From Candidatus Heimdallarchaeota archaeon (lineage in GTDB: Archaea > Asgardarchaeota > Heimdallarchaeia > Heimdallarchaeales > Heimdallarchaeaceae): DNA of 12,537 nucleotides. Where the stretch lies: assembly GCA_021399345.1 (NCBI GenBank), contig JAAFKI010000102.1, positions 1 through 12,537 of the forward strand, in the 5' to 3' direction. Below the pieces are notes generated by a model. It made no database searches. It was not told where the DNA came from and worked only from the letters and a program-made list of their open reading frames with translations. Position numbers and translations under genes: made by a program. Below are positions 1,947 through 12,537 of the stretch, in pieces; the first letter of the stretch is position 1; each line of letters opens with the position of its first letter.

Positions 1947-1952
1947 AGGTGA
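1947..1952 (+). promoter_or_regulatory. Shine-Dalgarno-like AGGTGA for the ATG at 1964
   Basis: Archaeal-type GGTGA 11 nt upstream of an in-frame ATG. Similar motifs precede 706 (AGGTG), 3229 (GAGGTG), 5609 (GAGGGA), 6922 (GGAGG) and 9084 (GGAG). Confidence 0.55.
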
Positions 1953-1963
1953 AACAGAGCGAA

Positions 1964-3232
1964 ATGACTAGCTTCACACTTATTGAAAAAATCATCAGAA
2001 ATCGTACAGATGTTTCAGATAGTGAGATCTATCCAAATAACATAGTATGGGTTAATCTTGATTTGGTTACAGCAAGAGATTATGCAGGACCTCAAGTTAT
2101 AGATCTATTTCAAAAAAACTATATTGGTTCTAAAACATTCAACAATGAAAAAGTTATCTTTACTCCAGATTGTTATCCTTATGGCAATGATCCAAAGCAT
2201 GCTAAAGATCAAGAAAAAATTCGCGTATTTGCCAAAGAACATGGAATCAAGGTAACTGATCTCGGGTCAGGTATAGGTTCTCATCTATTGTTTCGAAGAG
2301 GTTTTTCAAAACCAGGAGATGTAGTTATTGGAGCTGATAGCCATTATAATATTCTTGGAGCTTTAGGAATCTTAGGGCAAGGAGCAGGAGATGTCATGCT
2401 TGCTTTTGCCTTGAAAACAGGAAAATCATGGATAAAAATTCCTGAAACTGTAAAAATTATCTTAAAGGGAGATTATGAGTGGCCAACAACAGCAAAAGAT
2501 TTAGCTCTTTATGTTCTAAAAGAACTTCATGAATATGGAATTACAGGGAAAGCTGTCGAATTCTATGGTGCGATTATTGACAAGTTATCAATTGAAGAAA
2601 GAGTCACTTTATGTTCTCTAATTACAGAAGCTTCAGGCGTTATTGGATTTGTACCAGCTGATAAAATTACAGCTGATTATTACTCCAAGATTGGAATCGA
2701 GATAGAAATGTTATCCGCTGATGAAGATGCAAGATACATCTCAGAATTAGTCTTAGATATTCAAGATTTAGGCCAATACATCGCATGTCCTCCACATCCA
2801 CATAATGTCAAAAAAATTGAGGAAGTAATGGGTACTCCCATAAATTCTATTGTTATTGGTTCTTGTACAAATGGAAGTTCAGCAGATATTCATGATGCTG
2901 CAAAGATACTAAAGGGACACAAAATCAACCCAAATGTGAGATTTGGAATAGTTCCTGCAACTAGAGAGGATTTCGTTTCAATCAATCTAAATGGCGATAT
3001 GACAATAATTCTAGAATCTGGTGGAAACTTTTTTGGTGTAGGTTGTTCAACCTGCGCGAAGGGACAATATGGTTTAACCGGGGGTGAAACAGCTGTAACT
3101 TTAACAACAGGAAACAGAAACACTCAAGGCAAAATTGGTCCCGCAGATGTTTATTTAGCTAGTCCTGTTGTAGCTGCAGCTACAGCAATTGAAGGAAAAA
3201 TTGCTGCTCCTAAAGAGGTGGTTAAAAGATGA
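1964..3232 (+). CDS. Aconitase-family (LeuC/HacA-like) [4Fe-4S] hydro-lyase large subunit, divergent active site
   Basis: TLIEKII start, IGADSH, TGKSWIKIPET, TAKDLAL, three cluster cysteines (IGSCTNG, GCSTC), NRN, VYLASP..AAATAIEGKI. The ORF track starts at GTG 1949; ATG 1964 is preferred because that GTG lies within the SD motif. Confidence 0.92.
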   Translation: MTSFTLIEKIIRNRTDVSDSEIYPNNIVWVNLDLVTARDYAGPQVIDLFQKNYIGSKTFNNEKVIFTPDCYPYGNDPKHAKDQEKIRVFAKEHGIKVTDLGSGIGSHLLFRRGFSKPGDVVIGADSHYNILGALGILGQGAGDVMLAFALKTGKSWIKIPETVKIILKGDYEWPTTAKDLALYVLKELHEYGITGKAVEFYGAIIDKLSIEERVTLCSLITEASGVIGFVPADKITADYYSKIGIEIEMLSADEDARYISELVLDIQDLGQYIACPPHPHNVKKIEEVMGTPINSIVIGSCTNGSSADIHDAAKILKGHKINPNVRFGIVPATREDFVSINLNGDMTIILESGGNFFGVGCSTCAKGQYGLTGGETAVTLTTGNRNTQGKIGPADVYLASPVVAAATAIEGKIAAPKEVVKR

Positions 3233-6925: not shown

Positions 6926-9063
6926 CAACTGATAAATTAGCCGTGGATCAAGGACTTCTCTATTATCTCATCAAACACATTCGTCCTGAACTCGCTCAGA
7001 AAATATCCGAAAAGAAAACAATTGAAACTATGATTGTTGGATTAGGAAGACAAGGAACTCGACACGCGCAACTTATGATGGAATATGGGACCAACGTTAC
7101 ATGTGGAGTAGCACCAGGCAAAGGTGGTACATATGTTCATGAAACTGTTCCTGTTTATGAATCTGCTGAGTCAGCAAAAAGGAAATACCCTGATATAGCT
7201 GTAGCAAGTATATGGAAACATTATTCTTCTGCTAAGGATGCTACAATTGAAGCTATTAGATCAGGAATTCCTATTGTTGTTCTAATTTCAGAATTTATTC
7301 CATTAAAGGATGTAAGAGACATTCTAGTTGAAGCTAGAAAACATAAAACAATCTTATTTGGTGGTAACACACCAGGAATAATATTTCCTCCAGAAGGAAT
7401 AAAAGTGGGTATGCTTCCAGATATTTTTCAGGCTCAAAAAACAGATAACAAAACTGGTCCCAAAGGAGTGACAATTTTATCGCGAAGTGGAGCTATTCTA
7501 TATCATTTATCTGATGCACTAGCTAGTGCAGGAATTGCTCAAAATGGAGTATTGGGTGTAGGGGGAGATGGAGCTATTGGTTCTCGTTTTATAGATCTTG
7601 TTTCAAGAATAATGCAATACGAGCACACAGATTTAGTTGTTATCGCTGGTGAAATTGGTGGAATGCAGGAAGAATTGCTAGCTCAAGACATGGAAGCAAA
7701 TCCAGAAAAATATCCAAAACCTCTAGTTGCATTAATATCAGGAGCCAATGCTCCGGAAGGAAAAACCATGGGGCATGCAGGAGCTGTAATTTCTCCTGGG
7801 CAAAGTTATGGTACCTATCAAACAAAGAAGGAATCCTTGGAAAAAGCAGGAGTAACTGTAGTAAACCATCAAAGAGATTTAATAGATGCTGTAAGGTCAA
7901 AATTAAATCGAATATATTTTGATATTGAGGAATATTACTCAAAAATGCGTAAAAAATGGGATGCTAGACCACCAGTGAAAACTTGGGGGACTTTAGTAAC
8001 TAATGTAATGCCAAACAATTTGATAATACGAGGATATCCTCTACAAGAAATTATAGCAGAAAAAGGATTTTTGGAAACGTCATATTTACTCCTTAAAGGA
8101 GAATTTCCTGAAGAAGCTCAACTTAAAGAGCTTGAAGATATTGCAAAAGAAGCAATAAAACAAGAATTCGCGGACCTTAAATCGATTACCATAAGTTCAG
8201 ATATTTCTAAAACTCTTGGAACATTGATGTTGGTCGATAATAAACTTGCAGATTTTGTAAGATTGAATTCTGAAGAAACAAAAATCGCTGCTTATACATT
8301 GGGAAGAGTATTGAAGTATTTTGCATATATTCTAGGCAATTTAGATCAACTAGAATCTTCTTCAGTTTCTGAAACATCATTCTCAGAAATGATATATATA
8401 GGATTGGTCAAAGAAAAAAACCCAGACACGCTTAAAGTTAAGCTGTTAGAAGCAATGATTACTGCTTGTGTAGATCACGGAATCACACCACCATCAGCTC
8501 AAGCAACAATAATTCTAGCGTCGACTAGAGCTAATTATGAAGTAGCTGTAGCTGGAGGTTTACAAGCAATTACTGATGTTCATGGTGGTGCAGGACAAAA
8601 GGCAGCTAAATTCTTCTTATCAGTTGTTGAAAAAGCTGAAAAAGAAAAATTGGAACTCGATGAATCCACCTTCAAATTGATACGTGAAACAATCAAAACC
8701 GGCAAAAGAATTGAAGGTTTAGGTCACCGTATTCATACACAAGATCCTAGAAGAGATGTTTTATGGAAACTTGCAGAAGATGCAGGATATGCAAAGAGTT
8801 GTGTTGATGTTTCAAAAATGATTAGTAGTGCTTTCCACCGCGTGCGAGGAATGAACCTCCCAATTAACGTAGATGGGGTTATTGCGGCGATTACAGCTGA
8901 CATGGGATTAGACCCAAAACTTGCAAAAGTTATTTTTGTATTTGGGAGAACAGCAGGACTGGCCGCACATTATTTTGAGGAAATTAATACTCAGCCTCAG
9001 ATGAGAAGGATTGCGTTTGATAAAGCTACTTACAAAGGACCATCAATTAGAGAAATTAAATAG
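6922..9063 (+). CDS. SucD-like CoA-binding/phospho-His subunit fused to a citryl-CoA lyase/citrate synthase-fold domain (ATP-citrate-lyase-like large subunit)
   Basis: N-half: GVAPGKGG, GGNTPG, SRSG, GVGGD, GEIGG, GKTMGHAGA (phospho-His at 7774-7776). C-half from ~7984: IRGYPL, DHGITPPS, HGGAG, GLGHRIH..DPR, PINVDG, GRTAGLAAHYFEE. ATGA overlap with the beta-like gene. Confidence 0.92.
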   Translation: MTTDKLAVDQGLLYYLIKHIRPELAQKISEKKTIETMIVGLGRQGTRHAQLMMEYGTNVTCGVAPGKGGTYVHETVPVYESAESAKRKYPDIAVASIWKHYSSAKDATIEAIRSGIPIVVLISEFIPLKDVRDILVEARKHKTILFGGNTPGIIFPPEGIKVGMLPDIFQAQKTDNKTGPKGVTILSRSGAILYHLSDALASAGIAQNGVLGVGGDGAIGSRFIDLVSRIMQYEHTDLVVIAGEIGGMQEELLAQDMEANPEKYPKPLVALISGANAPEGKTMGHAGAVISPGQSYGTYQTKKESLEKAGVTVVNHQRDLIDAVRSKLNRIYFDIEEYYSKMRKKWDARPPVKTWGTLVTNVMPNNLIIRGYPLQEIIAEKGFLETSYLLLKGEFPEEAQLKELEDIAKEAIKQEFADLKSITISSDISKTLGTLMLVDNKLADFVRLNSEETKIAAYTLGRVLKYFAYILGNLDQLESSSVSETSFSEMIYIGLVKEKNPDTLKVKLLEAMITACVDHGITPPSAQATIILASTRANYEVAVAGGLQAITDVHGGAGQKAAKFFLSVVEKAEKEKLELDESTFKLIRETIKTGKRIEGLGHRIHTQDPRRDVLWKLAEDAGYAKSCVDVSKMISSAFHRVRGMNLPINVDGVIAAITADMGLDPKLAKVIFVFGRTAGLAAHYFEEINTQPQMRRIAFDKATYKGPSIREIK

Positions 9064-9083
9064 GATGTTGATTGGAGAAAAGA

Positions 9084-9884
9084 ATGAAGAATCTAGCATT
9101 TGAGATAATTGGGGATATATTAATCATCAGGGATGATTCTGATGAAATTTCTTTGAAAAGCTTTGCAGAAGAAAAAATCCAAAAGCACTCTTTTATTAAA
9201 ACAGTATTACTTCAAACCTCCAAAATCCATGGACAAGAGCGAAAAAGAAAGATCAGGTATGTTATGGGAAAAAACAAATCAGAAACAATTCACAAAGAGC
9301 ATGGAAATTCATTCTTAGTAGATTTATCTGAAGTATTTTTCTCTCCTCGTTTGAGTTATGAAAGACAACGAATTGCTAATTTGATTGGAGAAAATGAGAT
9401 AATTCTAAATTTCTTTTCAGGAGTTGGTCCGTTTAGTATAGCTTTAGCATCGAAATGCAATTCATGTGTTGTTCATAGTATTGAAATAAACAAAACAGCA
9501 TATGATTGTCTTCTCAAAAATATTGAAACAAACAAATGTCAGGAAAAAGTTATCCCTTATTTCGGAGACGCTTTTGAGATTGTTCCAAAAATGTTTATCA
9601 ACAGTGTAAATAGGGTTTTGCTTCCTTTACCTCTAGATTCAGACAAAGCCCTCCCAATAGCTTATCAAACTTTGAAAGACGGAAGAGGAATTATTCATTG
9701 GCAAATTACAAAAAGAATAAGCTCAAAAGAGATAAGGGAAGAAATAATTATTGACAGAATTAATAGCATCCCCCATTCATACAATTTCTCCAAGAATTAT
9801 ACAATTACAGATATGAGATTAATTAGATGGTTAGGTCCAAAAATAGCACATATTGCAGTAGATTTAAGTTTCAAAGCTCCTTAA
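9084..9884 (+). CDS. Trm5/Taw2-family (Met-10-like) SAM-dependent tRNA G37/wyosine-pathway transferase, lacking the N-terminal D1 domain
   Basis: FEIIGDILII, TIHKEHG..F.VDL..VFFSPRLSYERQR, SAM motif FSGVGPFSI, IEIN..AY..L..N...NK, GDA, RVLLPLP. The ORF track starts at TTG 9072; ATG 9084 follows a GGAG. Confidence 0.88.
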   Translation: MKNLAFEIIGDILIIRDDSDEISLKSFAEEKIQKHSFIKTVLLQTSKIHGQERKRKIRYVMGKNKSETIHKEHGNSFLVDLSEVFFSPRLSYERQRIANLIGENEIILNFFSGVGPFSIALASKCNSCVVHSIEINKTAYDCLLKNIETNKCQEKVIPYFGDAFEIVPKMFINSVNRVLLPLPLDSDKALPIAYQTLKDGRGIIHWQITKRISSKEIREEIIIDRINSIPHSYNFSKNYTITDMRLIRWLGPKIAHIAVDLSFKAP

Positions 9885-10305
9885 TAGAACTAACATAATC
9901 TGCGTATTCCTCAAGTTCTTTGAAATAATCTTCTGATGTAAAGATATATTCATTTGAGTTATTAATATCTCGAATAATTTGTAAGAGATCCTGAAGAGAT
10001 AAAATTCCATTAGTAATTAATAAATCGAAATTTGCAATTAAACAGACAGCATTTTTCAAAACACTTAATGTATCAAGTAGAGTGTTCCGAACATTATTCA
10101 CTGCCTCATTAGATCCAATTGTTACATAGGGAATAGAGTCTTCTAGCTCTAAATCCGGAATCCAAGTAAAAGAATCATCAATAATGATTACCAATACAGG
10201 TTTTGAGTGCCCTTTTGCTCTTAAAATTGATCCTAATCCAGTATGAAAAGCTCCTTTTCTCACACCAAAATAGTAATGGGTTAAGTAAAGGTCAGTCATA
10301 AACAT
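9871..10305 (-). CDS. CobO/BtuR (cob(I)alamin adenosyltransferase)-fold protein, degenerate
   Basis: HYYFGVRKG...GLGSILRAKGHSKPVLVI aligns by eye with the family's hYTGxGKGKTTAAhGxAhRAxGHGxKV. The C-terminal GILSLQDLLQII...EYIFTS....ELEEYADYVS matches GLI..EEVL.....ELVLTGR.....L.E.AD.VT. Confidence 0.6.
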   Translation of the reverse strand: MFMTDLYLTHYYFGVRKGAFHTGLGSILRAKGHSKPVLVIIIDDSFTWIPDLELEDSIPYVTIGSNEAVNNVRNTLLDTLSVLKNAVCLIANFDLLITNGILSLQDLLQIIRDINNSNEYIFTSEDYFKELEEYADYVSSIKEL

Positions 10306-10312
10306 CTACTTA

Positions 10313-11722
10313 CTAATTAGATTGACTTTGTAATTTTGCCAAGTATCGCTTGTATCCATCTAGAGTGTCTTCAACTCTCAACATATGCCTTTCTGCTTTA
10401 ATTCGTAGTTCTTGCCATTCCTCTTCATCGATTTTCTCCGAATTTAGAGCATGTTCTAATTGTTGGATTCTCTCTATGGCCTTTTGTCTTCGGGTTCCGA
10501 GGTGTTTGATAACATTCTCAATATCTTCGAATTGAATAGGGGTTTTATCTGTTTCTCCAGCTTCTGCCTCAATAATTTTAGTTAATGCAGATTTCTCTTC
10601 TTCCGGTTCTAAATCTTTTTCCTTGGATACATGTGCTATCGTTTCCTTTATTGAGGATACAAAGTCAGCAGCTGTTTCTCTCTGCTCGGGGGACGATAAA
10701 ACTTGATTTAATCTAGATATAGAAGAACGAAACTCATGGACTTCAGCAATTTCTTTCTCACTTAATCCTTCTTCACTTATCACACTTTCTTCAATTGAAG
10801 GGGTGCTTGGAAGCGTAATTTCTCCTTCTTCTTCACTAATGGATATTAGTTTTTCTGTTAATGGAGAAATAACTGTATCATCTCCCGGATCCAAGGCAGA
10901 TAACAAACCTGCTAACTCCTTCAAAGCTTCTTGCTCTGTTTCAATATTTTGCATAAAGGGTTCTTGCTCAAATTCATATTGGGAAGCAAGTTCAATGCCT
11001 TCAATCAGGTCTTTAGCATCATCCATCAAATCCTTTTCAGGTTGCTCAGTTGTTTCTGAAATATCATCCAAAGGAGCAGAATCCACCGGTACAGAATCCA
11101 ATTCAACTTCTTCAATAATTTCTTGTTCTTTAATTTCCTCAACTTCAGGCTTTTCTGTTTCAGCTTCAATCAGTTCTTCAAAAACTTGAACATCAGAATC
11201 GTCTTGTTTTTTTTCCTCGTTTTGCTTTATAGGAATCTGTTTTGATGGTTCAATTTCTGTAATTTGAATATTACTTCTTTGGAGCTGTAACAAGGCTGTT
11301 GTTTGTTGTTTCAGCTTTTTTGTTTCTTCACGAATAGAATTAATGTTAAGCTCCAACGTTTCAAGTTTTGCATTAATGAACTGTAATGTATCATTTTCAG
11401 TACCACTGAATCTATGATATTCTATTTGTAACATATTTGCATATGTAATTACATTGTAAACTGTATCAATCATTTCAGGTAATTCTCTAAACCAAGGTCC
11501 TGCACTGTCGAATTTCAGAAGAATATCCTTAGCAGTCGAAAAATGCTTTTCGTACTCTTTTTGTTGCTCTGGTGGTAAACAAGTTTTAACATATGAGGAA
11601 AGAGTAGCCAGATTTGTTATAAGATGTGTTTTAACATCCTCCTCTTCTTCTGGATTGAATTTACCCTTTAGAACTCCCCAAAACATCGTTTTAATTTCTT
11701 CAATTGCTTTCTCAAGGCTCAT
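10313..11722 (-). CDS. Hypothetical acidic, coiled-coil / partly disordered protein, 469 aa
   Basis: Long ORF packed 2 nt and 7 nt from its neighbours; helical N-terminus, heptad segment, long E/D/P/S-rich middle and helical C-terminus. No family recognised. Confidence 0.85.
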   Translation of the reverse strand: MSLEKAIEEIKTMFWGVLKGKFNPEEEEDVKTHLITNLATLSSYVKTCLPPEQQKEYEKHFSTAKDILLKFDSAGPWFRELPEMIDTVYNVITYANMLQIEYHRFSGTENDTLQFINAKLETLELNINSIREETKKLKQQTTALLQLQRSNIQITEIEPSKQIPIKQNEEKKQDDSDVQVFEELIEAETEKPEVEEIKEQEIIEEVELDSVPVDSAPLDDISETTEQPEKDLMDDAKDLIEGIELASQYEFEQEPFMQNIETEQEALKELAGLLSALDPGDDTVISPLTEKLISISEEEGEITLPSTPSIEESVISEEGLSEKEIAEVHEFRSSISRLNQVLSSPEQRETAADFVSSIKETIAHVSKEKDLEPEEEKSALTKIIEAEAGETDKTPIQFEDIENVIKHLGTRRQKAIERIQQLEHALNSEKIDEEEWQELRIKAERHMLRVEDTLDGYKRYLAKLQSQSN

Positions 11723-11724
11723 TT

Positions 11725-12537
11725 TTAAAACCCTAAATTAATTGTTCTTCGTTTAGTGAAATCATGAGGTAATGAAGGCTCTAAATAAATTTTATCGATT
11801 TTTAAATCATCCTTCAGCTGAATAGTAACATCAAGTTTTTCTTTCGAATCAATGTTCCAGAAATATAGAGATGGTTTTATTCCTGATCGAGAATACTCAC
11901 TTAGTATAGAAAATGAACTTACCAGATGTTGATACTCAGGACTTTTTTTAGCAGGAAAAGATTCACTCCATGGATTCACATGAATGATTATATTGTTTGT
12001 AATCTTTGCTAATTCTGTGATATTTTGACCAAAGAACTCATTAGCTCCAGTAATAAAACCAGTTTCTTTATCAGCTTTTAATACAAAAGAAATATCGATA
12101 TTCTTTAGGTTTTTCACAGTATCTGTAATTTCTCTTAATGTTTGATTAATGTAAGTAGACCTTTCATCATTCCAATTTTCCATTAGGTCCCGGGATTCAA
12201 GATATTCAAAACTGAAATCTCTTTCAATATTCCACTTGCTCGCAAATAATCTCCTACATCTATCACAGAAACAAGTTCTTTTGCTTGCCAACATCAAATC
12301 GTCTAATACCAAATTTTCTATTGGGTAATGAGCTATTTCTGATGCTATAGCTGCTGAATATTTTACCAAATTTTCTTGGCTTGGACAAGAATATGAAGCA
12401 ATAGTAGCGCCATCGCTACTACTTAGTTGAAAATCAGTGTTTTGGGAAAGAAAACTATCCCCATGAACATAAGTAACCGCATCCACTTTTATTCCCATAT
12501 TGTCTGCAATTGTACAAAATGAATGAAAGAAGACACC
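11725..12537 (-). CDS. 5'-truncated putative glycoside-hydrolase-like TIM-barrel protein (GHL10/GHL6-like) with CxCxxC motif
   Basis: The frame is open from the window edge (GVFFHSFCTIADN-MGIKVDA...), so ATG 12498 is probably internal. The pattern GIKVDA...D...G....CPS.......EIAHYPIENLVLDD...CFCDRC...F resembles GHL-type barrels. Confidence 0.55.
   Translation of the reverse strand, partial: GVFFHSFCTIADNMGIKVDAVTYVHGDSFLSQNTDFQLSSSDGATIASYSCPSQENLVKYSAAIASEIAHYPIENLVLDDLMLASKRTCFCDRCRRLFASKWNIERDFSFEYLESRDLMENWNDERSTYINQTLREITDTVKNLKNIDISFVLKADKETGFITGANEFFGQNITELAKITNNIIIHVNPWSESFPAKKSPEYQHLVSSFSILSEYSRSGIKPSLYFWNIDSKEKLDVTIQLKDDLKIDKIYLEPSLPHDFTKRRTINLGF

Follow-up and report, generated by a model that had tools for sequence, protein, structure and literature searches.

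The window analysed here is the whole 12,537-nucleotide contig JAAFKI010000102.1 of Candidatus Heimdallarchaeota archaeon (assembly GCA_021399345.1), a Heimdall-type Asgard metagenome-assembled genome (MAG; G000) of 3.27 Mb that is 88.6% complete. Between positions 121 and 9063 it carries seven tightly packed genes, P0001 to P0007, all on the forward strand. At the centre of this study is the third of them, P0003 (1964-3232; PF00330), a LeuC-like large subunit in which an Arg-Asp motif replaces the canonical His-Asp; we refer to this protein and its relatives as the RD clade, after that replacement. Its open reading frame (ORF) opens at a GTG at 1949, but orthologues of 421-422 residues suggest that the ATG at 1964 is the true start. 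P0004 (3229-3735; PF00694), an RD-type LeuD-like small subunit, begins in overlap with the P0003 stop codon. The two genes are preceded by P0001 (121-687), which encodes an HD-domain (HDIG) protein resembling metal-dependent phosphohydrolases (PF01966, TIGR00277), and by P0002 (706-1839), a beta-decarboxylating dehydrogenase of the family (PF00180) that includes isocitrate, homoisocitrate and isopropylmalate dehydrogenases (IDH, HICDH and IPMDH). They are followed by P0005 (3739-5598), a 619-residue fusion of LeuC- and LeuD-type enzymes that possesses all canonical catalytic motifs. P0006 (5609-6925; PF08442, PF24948, PF00549) is an ATP-grasp protein similar to the beta subunit of ATP-citrate lyase (ACL) or citryl-CoA synthetase (CCS), and all 12 relatives examined keep it in their operon. 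Finally, P0007 (6922-9063; PF02629, PF00549, PF00285) is a 713-residue ACL alpha-like fusion of succinyl-CoA-synthetase-alpha-like and citryl-CoA lyase (CCL) domains, with scores slightly under the cut-offs of the citryl-CoA lyase NCBIfam models.

A first-pass annotation of this DNA had pointed to a series of motif substitutions in P0003, and alignment to P0005 and to Methanocaldococcus jannaschii LeuC and HacA (PDB 4kp1, 4kp2) places every one of them where it was reported. Motif positions were read from the translation of 1949-3232, and residue numbers count from 1949. The HD motif is replaced by Arg43-Asp44 (TARDYAG, nucleotides 2075-2080) and the DH motif by Asp74-Cys75 (FTPDCYP, nucleotides 2168-2173). 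Further along, GSGIGSH stands in place of the canonical G[IV]CHQ, GADSHYN in place of DSHTC, and GNRNTQGKIG in place of NRNF.GR.G, the last exchanging GR for GK. We find one additional change, in which the Asn of the N...E motif becomes Ser (MTNMAIE to LCSLITE). The residues that remain are the Asp-Ser-His triplet, the Glu of the N...E motif, Asn-Arg-Asn and, as had also been claimed, the three cysteines, all within an intact ORF. These cysteines (C...CxxC, in GSCTNGS and GCSTCAKGQ of P0003; GSCTNG and CSTC in all RD members) are predicted to ligate a [4Fe-4S] cluster.

Two of the altered positions are occupied in aconitase by histidines that are considered catalytic. His147, the histidine of GIxHQ, belongs to the hydrogen-bond network at the unique iron of the cluster. 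In RD members the motif reads GIG[ST]H, with Ser or Thr at the histidine position and a histidine one residue later. The Asp100-His101 pair of aconitase is represented by D-C in the Heimdall clade and by D-[LCTV] in other RD members; His101 is the residue that protonates the leaving hydroxyl in aconitase (PMC8184944).

The small subunit is altered more subtly. P0004 has GSTRQQ where canonical proteins have GSSRE[HQ], such that the Ser base and the Arg are retained; bacterial RD small subunits read GSSRQQ. The specificity loop of P0004 (IFHQSLLTI, with SLLTI as its core) aligns with YLRT of M. jannaschii homoaconitase (MjHACN) and YLVY of M. jannaschii isopropylmalate isomerase (MjIPMI). The bacterial RD loop is [RAS][YH]L[HA]I, which matches neither the YLV[MY] pattern of isopropylmalate isomerases (IPMI) nor the YLRT of homoaconitases (HACN). 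A small-subunit signature consisting of IFHN..L.I, GSSRQQ and FGAIY is kept in about 45 loci.

Profile searches place both subunits in the aconitase superfamily (PF00330 at 222 bits for P0003, PF00694 at 56 bits for P0004). P0003 falls below the cut-offs of the IPMI/HACN family models NF001614, TIGR02086 and TIGR01343, with scores of 356.7 against 385, 331.3 against 410 and 327.9 against 385.7, respectively, and lies far below every cut-off of the aconitate hydratase equivalogs (AcnA, AcnB and PRK07229/TIGR01342 types). One bacterial RD member (L066) passes the three IPMI/HACN cut-offs, and annotation pipelines will therefore label many RD members as IPMI or HACN. Source databases and ESM Atlas labels assign these proteins generically to the "IPM dehydratase family", with automatic names such as IPM/homoaconitate dehydratase.

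The substitutions in P0003 are not due to chance; they are shared by a large set of proteins. About 75 orthologues with 60-95% identity to P0003 carry the signature in invariant or nearly invariant form; their source names point to Heimdallarchaeaceae, Kariarchaeaceae and Hodarchaeales, and in one case to Thorarchaeota. Below these, identity falls sharply to 41-46%, where a second and far larger group of bacterial and archaeal proteins shows the same signature (ARDF.G, FTFD[LCTV], GIG[ST]H, DSH[YLFM]N and NRNF.GKQG). The pattern common to the whole clade, to which P0003 conforms, is ARD[FY].G / F-T-x-D / GIG[ST]H / DSH.N / S...E / NRN..GK, accompanied always by a small subunit of its own that bears IFH[NQ] and GS[ST]RQQ and lacks the loop arginine. 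A motif-based scan with one genome per species confirmed at least 588 RD loci, with lineages that include Anaerolineae and other Chloroflexota, Acidobacteriota, Riflebacteria/Ozemobacter, Cloacimonadota, Sumerlaeota, KSB1, Phycisphaerales and Thermoplasmata. Natural fusions of the large and small subunits, 610-637 residues in length, also occur. When 143 LeuC-like representatives are placed in a tree, the proteins with the signature fall into a single clade (support 100), and the Heimdall sequences branch from within it. The sister of the RD clade is a small group with VVRDFGG and GIGQH motifs (RD2; P0133, P0137), in which a functional anchor was looked for and none was found.

The first-pass annotation had proposed that the changes do not represent decay, and this is borne out; the check that it suggested, whether RD, GIGSH and DSHYN are traits of a subfamily, comes out positive. 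Among 13 genomes of the window's family, the P0003 ORF is intact in all 13, and the pairwise ratio of nonsynonymous to synonymous substitution rates (dN/dS) is approximately 0.08-0.09 for P0003 and 0.10-0.13 for P0004, indicative of purifying selection; the values are themselves approximate given that dS is near saturation at about 1.7-2. These ratios are no higher than those of the dehydrogenase, P0005 or the ACL subunits. The opposite outcome, in which the substitutions are private to this genome and selection is relaxed, is clearly at odds with these observations, and we reject a pseudogene on the basis of the invariant motifs and the low dN/dS. Full-text literature searches returned no paper on the RD clade or on its link to citryl-CoA lyase. 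Judged by its sequences, the RD clade is a distinct, undescribed and strongly conserved branch of the aconitase superfamily.

Gene context connects this branch to citryl-CoA metabolism. The usual order in bacterial loci is CCS-beta, CCS-alpha, CCL, HD-domain protein, RD large subunit, RD small subunit, a canonical LeuC/LeuD pair and the IDH-like dehydrogenase, a gene set that is the same as that of the Heimdall family f1. Bacterial CCL is a protein of 260 residues, and CCS-alpha and CCL are separate genes there, whereas they are fused in P0007. The bacterial CCS-beta proteins are unusually long, at about 510-550 residues. In the tree, the N-terminal domain of P0005 falls together with the LeuC proteins of the canonical bacterial pairs (support 81-90), and its small-domain loop GLTY resembles the KYTY of the small subunits of those pairs. 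The whole module is common to Heimdall archaea and bacteria. Where the cluster is split, as in genomes G001 and G002, the RD genes remain beside CCS and CCL, whereas the canonical pair is found with the IDH-like gene.

The association extends to genomes in which the genes are not neighbours. In a sample of 201 Asgard genomes, with RD-type proteins defined by at least 41% identity and E ≤1e-99, and with P0007-type ACL, canonical AclA-type genes and split citryl-CoA lyases all counted, a CCL/ACL-type gene is present in 30 of 32 RD-positive genomes, even when unlinked, compared with 7 of 169 RD-negative genomes. Three RD-negative genomes of the window's own family also lack ACL. A second sample comprised 121 genomes from the class of one Anaerolineae carrier; here, 12 of the 14 genomes with RD have a citryl-CoA lyase, against 14 of the 107 without RD, and the lyases examined from the RD-negative genomes are mostly of a more divergent subtype that has no aconitase or IDH neighbours. 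The counts show an association between RD and lyase genes that is consistent across several lineages, but they are no formal probability, and they overstate independence because the genomes within each sample are kin.

The inventory of the Heimdall genome itself is sparse. The only PF00330 proteins in G000 are P0003 and P0005, the only PF00180 protein is P0002, and the only protein of the citrate synthase family (PF00285) is P0007. Within this 88.6% complete genome we found no PF00682 match, and hence no HMGL-like LeuA, CimA or homocitrate synthase, and no other aconitase, IDH or citrate synthase homologue. As far as the incomplete genome shows, the operon is the sole candidate route between citrate and 2-oxoglutarate in G000. 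Two simple substitutions of function were considered for the RD pair and rejected. It is not a stand-in for phosphomevalonate dehydratase, given that G000 has a full AcnX gene of its own elsewhere in the genome, nor for fumarase, given that a class I fumarase is present in G000 and in 22 of 23 genomes of the family, RD-negative ones included.

The dehydrogenase of the module is also of an unusual type. P0002 scores under every NCBIfam cut-off, and bacterial cluster dehydrogenases (for example, L039:6036-7154) are 61-68% identical to it and share the motif Y[RF]SPIVR[LM]RQ. This motif departs from the S-x-N of Escherichia coli IDH and does not contain the Arg85 of Thermus thermophilus HICDH; dehydrogenases of the P0002 type are about 40 residues longer than the T. 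thermophilus enzyme. From its sequence and setting, P0002 is probably the isocitrate dehydrogenase of the module.

The HD-domain protein is a conserved companion of the RD pair and of the citryl-CoA lyase genes (examples lie at L040:7276-7917, L066:2735-3265 and, in an Asgard locus, L100:8849-9370). Orthologues with 37-43% identity to P0001 occur in 32 bacterial RD loci, and another is part of the operon of the Asgard family f19. Of the 47 loci whose upstream sequence is long enough, 20 have the gene no more than 400 nucleotides before the RD large subunit. With 339 hits, the family is a small one; its distribution over taxa and contigs matches that of the RD clade, and it is present in bacteria and in two Asgard families. 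The predicted model of P0001 (predicted local distance difference test score, 96) has a generic HD fold whose nearest structures are YhaM and HDDC2/YfbR. A weak BLAST likeness of this protein to CCS-beta falls in the ATP-grasp region and was judged spurious. In one genome of the Anaerolineae class, a citryl-CoA lyase of the cluster type is followed by the HD-domain gene (L102, G225:C71:7400-24300, at approximately 8072-9447), and no RD gene was found in that genome, either nearby or genome-wide at E ≤1e-120. Given this locus, the HD-domain protein may belong with the lyase and not with RD.

The first-pass annotation had suggested that P0003 acts on a different substrate, with a different stereochemistry or in a different reaction. 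That general idea is plausible, although for the specific proposals it offered, dehydration of an (S)-configured hydroxy-tricarboxylate or cis/trans isomerization, no evidence was found. Because the gene context is tied to citrate and citryl-CoA, we prefer an altered or partial aconitase-type reaction to either of these. Our favoured reading, which we hold tentatively and rate somewhat short of an even chance, is that P0003 and P0004 constitute an Fe-S hydro-lyase that converts citrate to cis-aconitate, and that the canonical partner completes the conversion of cis-aconitate to isocitrate.

According to this split-aconitase scheme, P0003 and P0004 would be the two subunits of a [4Fe-4S] hydro-lyase heterodimer, which would work in a module connecting citrate with 2-oxoglutarate via citryl-CoA. 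ACL, or CCS together with CCL, would interconvert acetyl-CoA plus oxaloacetate and citrate; the RD enzyme would interconvert citrate and cis-aconitate; the canonical LeuCD-type P0005 would interconvert cis-aconitate and isocitrate; and the IDH-like P0002 would interconvert isocitrate and 2-oxoglutarate by oxidative decarboxylation or its reverse. The module could serve reductive citrate cleavage or ATP-conserving citrate synthesis, and the sequences are compatible with either direction. In the RD active site, the Ser of the small-subunit GSTRQ motif would abstract the proton, and the cluster iron that has no cysteine ligand would bind the tertiary hydroxyl and a carboxylate. The new Arg (of ARD) and Lys (of GK) might reposition the third carboxylate and so restrict binding to the "citrate mode". 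On chemical grounds, the enzyme might do without the DH histidine, since a tertiary alcohol departs more readily and needs less help from an acid.

Several observations lead us to this scheme. The catalytic core for hydration and dehydration is kept, the RD genes are tied to citryl-CoA enzymes and not to the dehydrogenase, and the canonical partner is co-inherited with RD. There are precedents for two aconitase-family enzymes that share one isomerization (PMC3556520) and for dehydratase-only superfamily members that lack His101 (PMC8184944). The sequences establish that the family exists and is conserved, which residues it has kept and lost, and with which genes it is associated; the substrate, the half-reaction, the direction and the role of the HD-domain protein are inferred.

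A number of findings count against the split-aconitase scheme, and they are the reason that our confidence in it stays limited. The HD-domain protein has no place in the scheme. The dehydrogenase has neither the S-x-N of IDH nor the Arg85 of HICDH, which leaves citrate/isocitrate as a putative substrate series. Neither small subunit, P0004 or P0005, has the arginine that contacts the gamma-carboxylate in MjHACN, as one does in aconitase, and the RD loop is hydrophobic. AcnA or a fused aconitase of 640-660 residues occurs beside RD in several genomes, and a split aconitase would be redundant there. In a second Asgard family, f19 (loci L099, G046:C7:90000-107000, and L100, G063:C44:28000-38000), the operon consists of the genes for the HD-domain protein, RD large subunit, RD small subunit, IDH-like dehydrogenase, ACL-beta and ACL-alpha, and lacks the canonical partner. 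In Riflebacteria and Cloacimonadota, the RD pair lies away from any citrate genes. The kinship of the genomes in the two co-occurrence samples, mentioned above, weighs in the same direction.

The f19 loci have additional features of their own. Their RD proteins are of the bacterial type (43-45% identity to P0003), and there are thus two RD lineages within the Asgard archaea. In L100, a gene for a pyridoxal-phosphate-dependent enzyme on the opposite strand separates the RD small subunit from the IDH-like gene, and in L099 the gap at this place measures 8.5 kb. In the lineages with solitary RD genes (Riflebacteria, Cloacimonadota and a Methanobacteriota MAG), the neighbours are housekeeping genes and provide no functional hint.

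A rival reading is that the RD pair acts on a related but different hydroxy acid. Candidates are homocitrate and 2-methylcitrate, the (S)-configured product of a condensation of the citrate synthase type, or a phosphorylated or CoA-bound derivative of citrate handled together with the HD phosphohydrolase; the pair could accordingly belong to another pathway or be a repair or side-activity enzyme. The hydrophobic specificity loop of the RD small subunit, the I-V pocket motif of the dehydrogenase and the retention of a phosphohydrolase-type protein in RD clusters, often directly upstream of the large subunit, would all fit such a substrate, and the new Arg and Lys offer a possible binding site for an additional anionic moiety. 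In G001 and G002, moreover, RD stands beside a standard set of citrate synthase, aconitase and IDH. However, the sole condensing or cleaving enzyme that is consistently linked to RD is of the citryl-CoA lyase type, G000 shows no other route between citrate and 2-oxoglutarate, and no further pathway-specific genes were found in the conserved RD clusters. We regard a different hydroxy acid as rather unlikely on balance.

The f19 operon and the solitary RD genes of Riflebacteria and Cloacimonadota raise another explanation, namely that RD carries out both half-reactions and represents a new type of complete aconitase, with the canonical partner being redundant or serving another 2-oxoacid. Retention of the Ser base, the Fe-S ligands and the DSH triplet is consistent with this possibility. 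Nevertheless, a full isomerase is less probable once the equivalents of both His101 and His147 are lost, most clusters have inherited the canonical partner together with RD, and the f19 genomes hold AcnA and two further LeuC-like genes elsewhere. A complete aconitase therefore appears distinctly unlikely to us.

A bolder proposal is that RD and its HD-domain companion catalyse a reaction new to the aconitase superfamily, one that might use a citrate derivative bearing a phosphate or CoA, or the opposite prochiral arm or enantiomer, and that the module of Heimdall archaea and many anaerobes would be a new central-carbon pathway instead of a variant segment of the tricarboxylic acid (TCA) cycle. 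To this we give little credence. We find it very improbable that the RD pair has no catalytic role and serves the ACL/aconitase module as an Fe-S protein of another kind, such as a sensor, regulator or scaffold, much as IRP1 does when it moonlights. The loss of two histidines considered catalytic in aconitase would suit such a role, but the Ser base, the Arg of GSxR, DSH, NRN, the Glu and the three Cys are invariant across two domains, as expected of an active site, and no nucleic-acid-binding or signalling domain was matched. It is hardly credible that RD is an ordinary isopropylmalate or homoaconitate isomerase (LeuCD or HacAB) of amino-acid or coenzyme biosynthesis, the function implied by its best-matching family models and structures and by the source annotations, because P0003 scores under all family cut-offs, catalytic and specificity residues differ, the 88.6% complete G000 yields no LeuA-type synthase and a single PF00180 gene, which speaks against leucine and lysine biosynthesis, and bacterial RD genomes hold separate, genuine leuC-leuB sets.

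The operon is followed by P0008 (9072-9884), a tRNA methyltransferase of the Trm5/Taw2 family that lies under all NCBIfam equivalog cut-offs (the best is Taw21, with 158 against 400 bits). An ORF of 144 residues at 9871-10305 has a weak and partial match to corrinoid adenosyltransferase, and two minus-strand ORFs at 10313-11722 (469 residues) and 11725-12498 (257 residues) are without a Pfam match.

If the split-aconitase scheme is correct, the citrate/isocitrate step of many uncultured anaerobes and of Heimdall archaea, which stand close to the eukaryotic stem, would be performed by a dedicated two-enzyme system of the LeuCD type, in one member of which the histidine viewed as aconitase's general acid is missing. 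The clade would then provide a natural test of the necessity of His101 and His147 in Fe-S hydro-lyase chemistry. Likewise, the annotation "isopropylmalate/homoaconitate dehydratase" would be wrong in hundreds of genomes, and reconstructions of leucine, lysine and TCA or reductive TCA metabolism would be distorted accordingly. The scheme would also bear on the wiring of ATP-citrate lyase modules in Asgard archaea; an archaeal origin of the eukaryotic ATP-citrate lyase has been proposed (PMC11976288).

Among known systems, the CCS/CCL and ACL enzymes of bacteria with the reductive TCA cycle are of the same kind as those encoded beside RD, and the RD module joins such genes to aconitase-like and IDH-like genes. 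A genome survey of the reductive cycle considered only AcnA and AcnB as aconitase types (PMC13147460), and in the literature that we searched, a rewired LeuCD-type pair and an HD-domain protein are not described as fixed companions. The best sequence match of P0003 is to M. jannaschii LeuC (MJ0499) and HacA (MJ1003; PDB 4kp1, 4nqy, 4kp2), with an E value of 6e-71. Like RD, these enzymes have two subunits, three Cys, DSH, NRN and the small-subunit Ser-Arg. RD differs from them in having RD, D[CLT], GIG[ST]H, DSH[YLFM]N, S...E and NRN..GK in place of HD, DH, GxCHQ, DSHT[CT], N...E and NRNF.GR, in a loop that is neither YLRT nor YLV[MY], and in its partner, which is a citryl-CoA lyase or ACL, with no LeuA-type synthase found. 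The AcnX dehydratases function without an equivalent of His101 (PMC8184944) and, like RD, keep the Ser base and the Fe-S Lewis acid. They only dehydrate, and unlike RD they belong to Pfam families PF04412/PF01989 and act on substrates unrelated to citrate.

The nearest model for the cooperation of RD with a canonical pair is homocitrate isomerization, which requires both aconitase and homoaconitase in fungi and in T. thermophilus (Fazius et al. 2012, PMC3556520). In that system, homoaconitase is restricted to the second half-reaction, and the first half is carried out by a standard aconitase that has all canonical residues and whose gene is not clustered with that of its partner. In contrast, the RD system would assign the first half-reaction, with citrate as the presumed substrate, to a dedicated and rewired enzyme of the LeuCD type.

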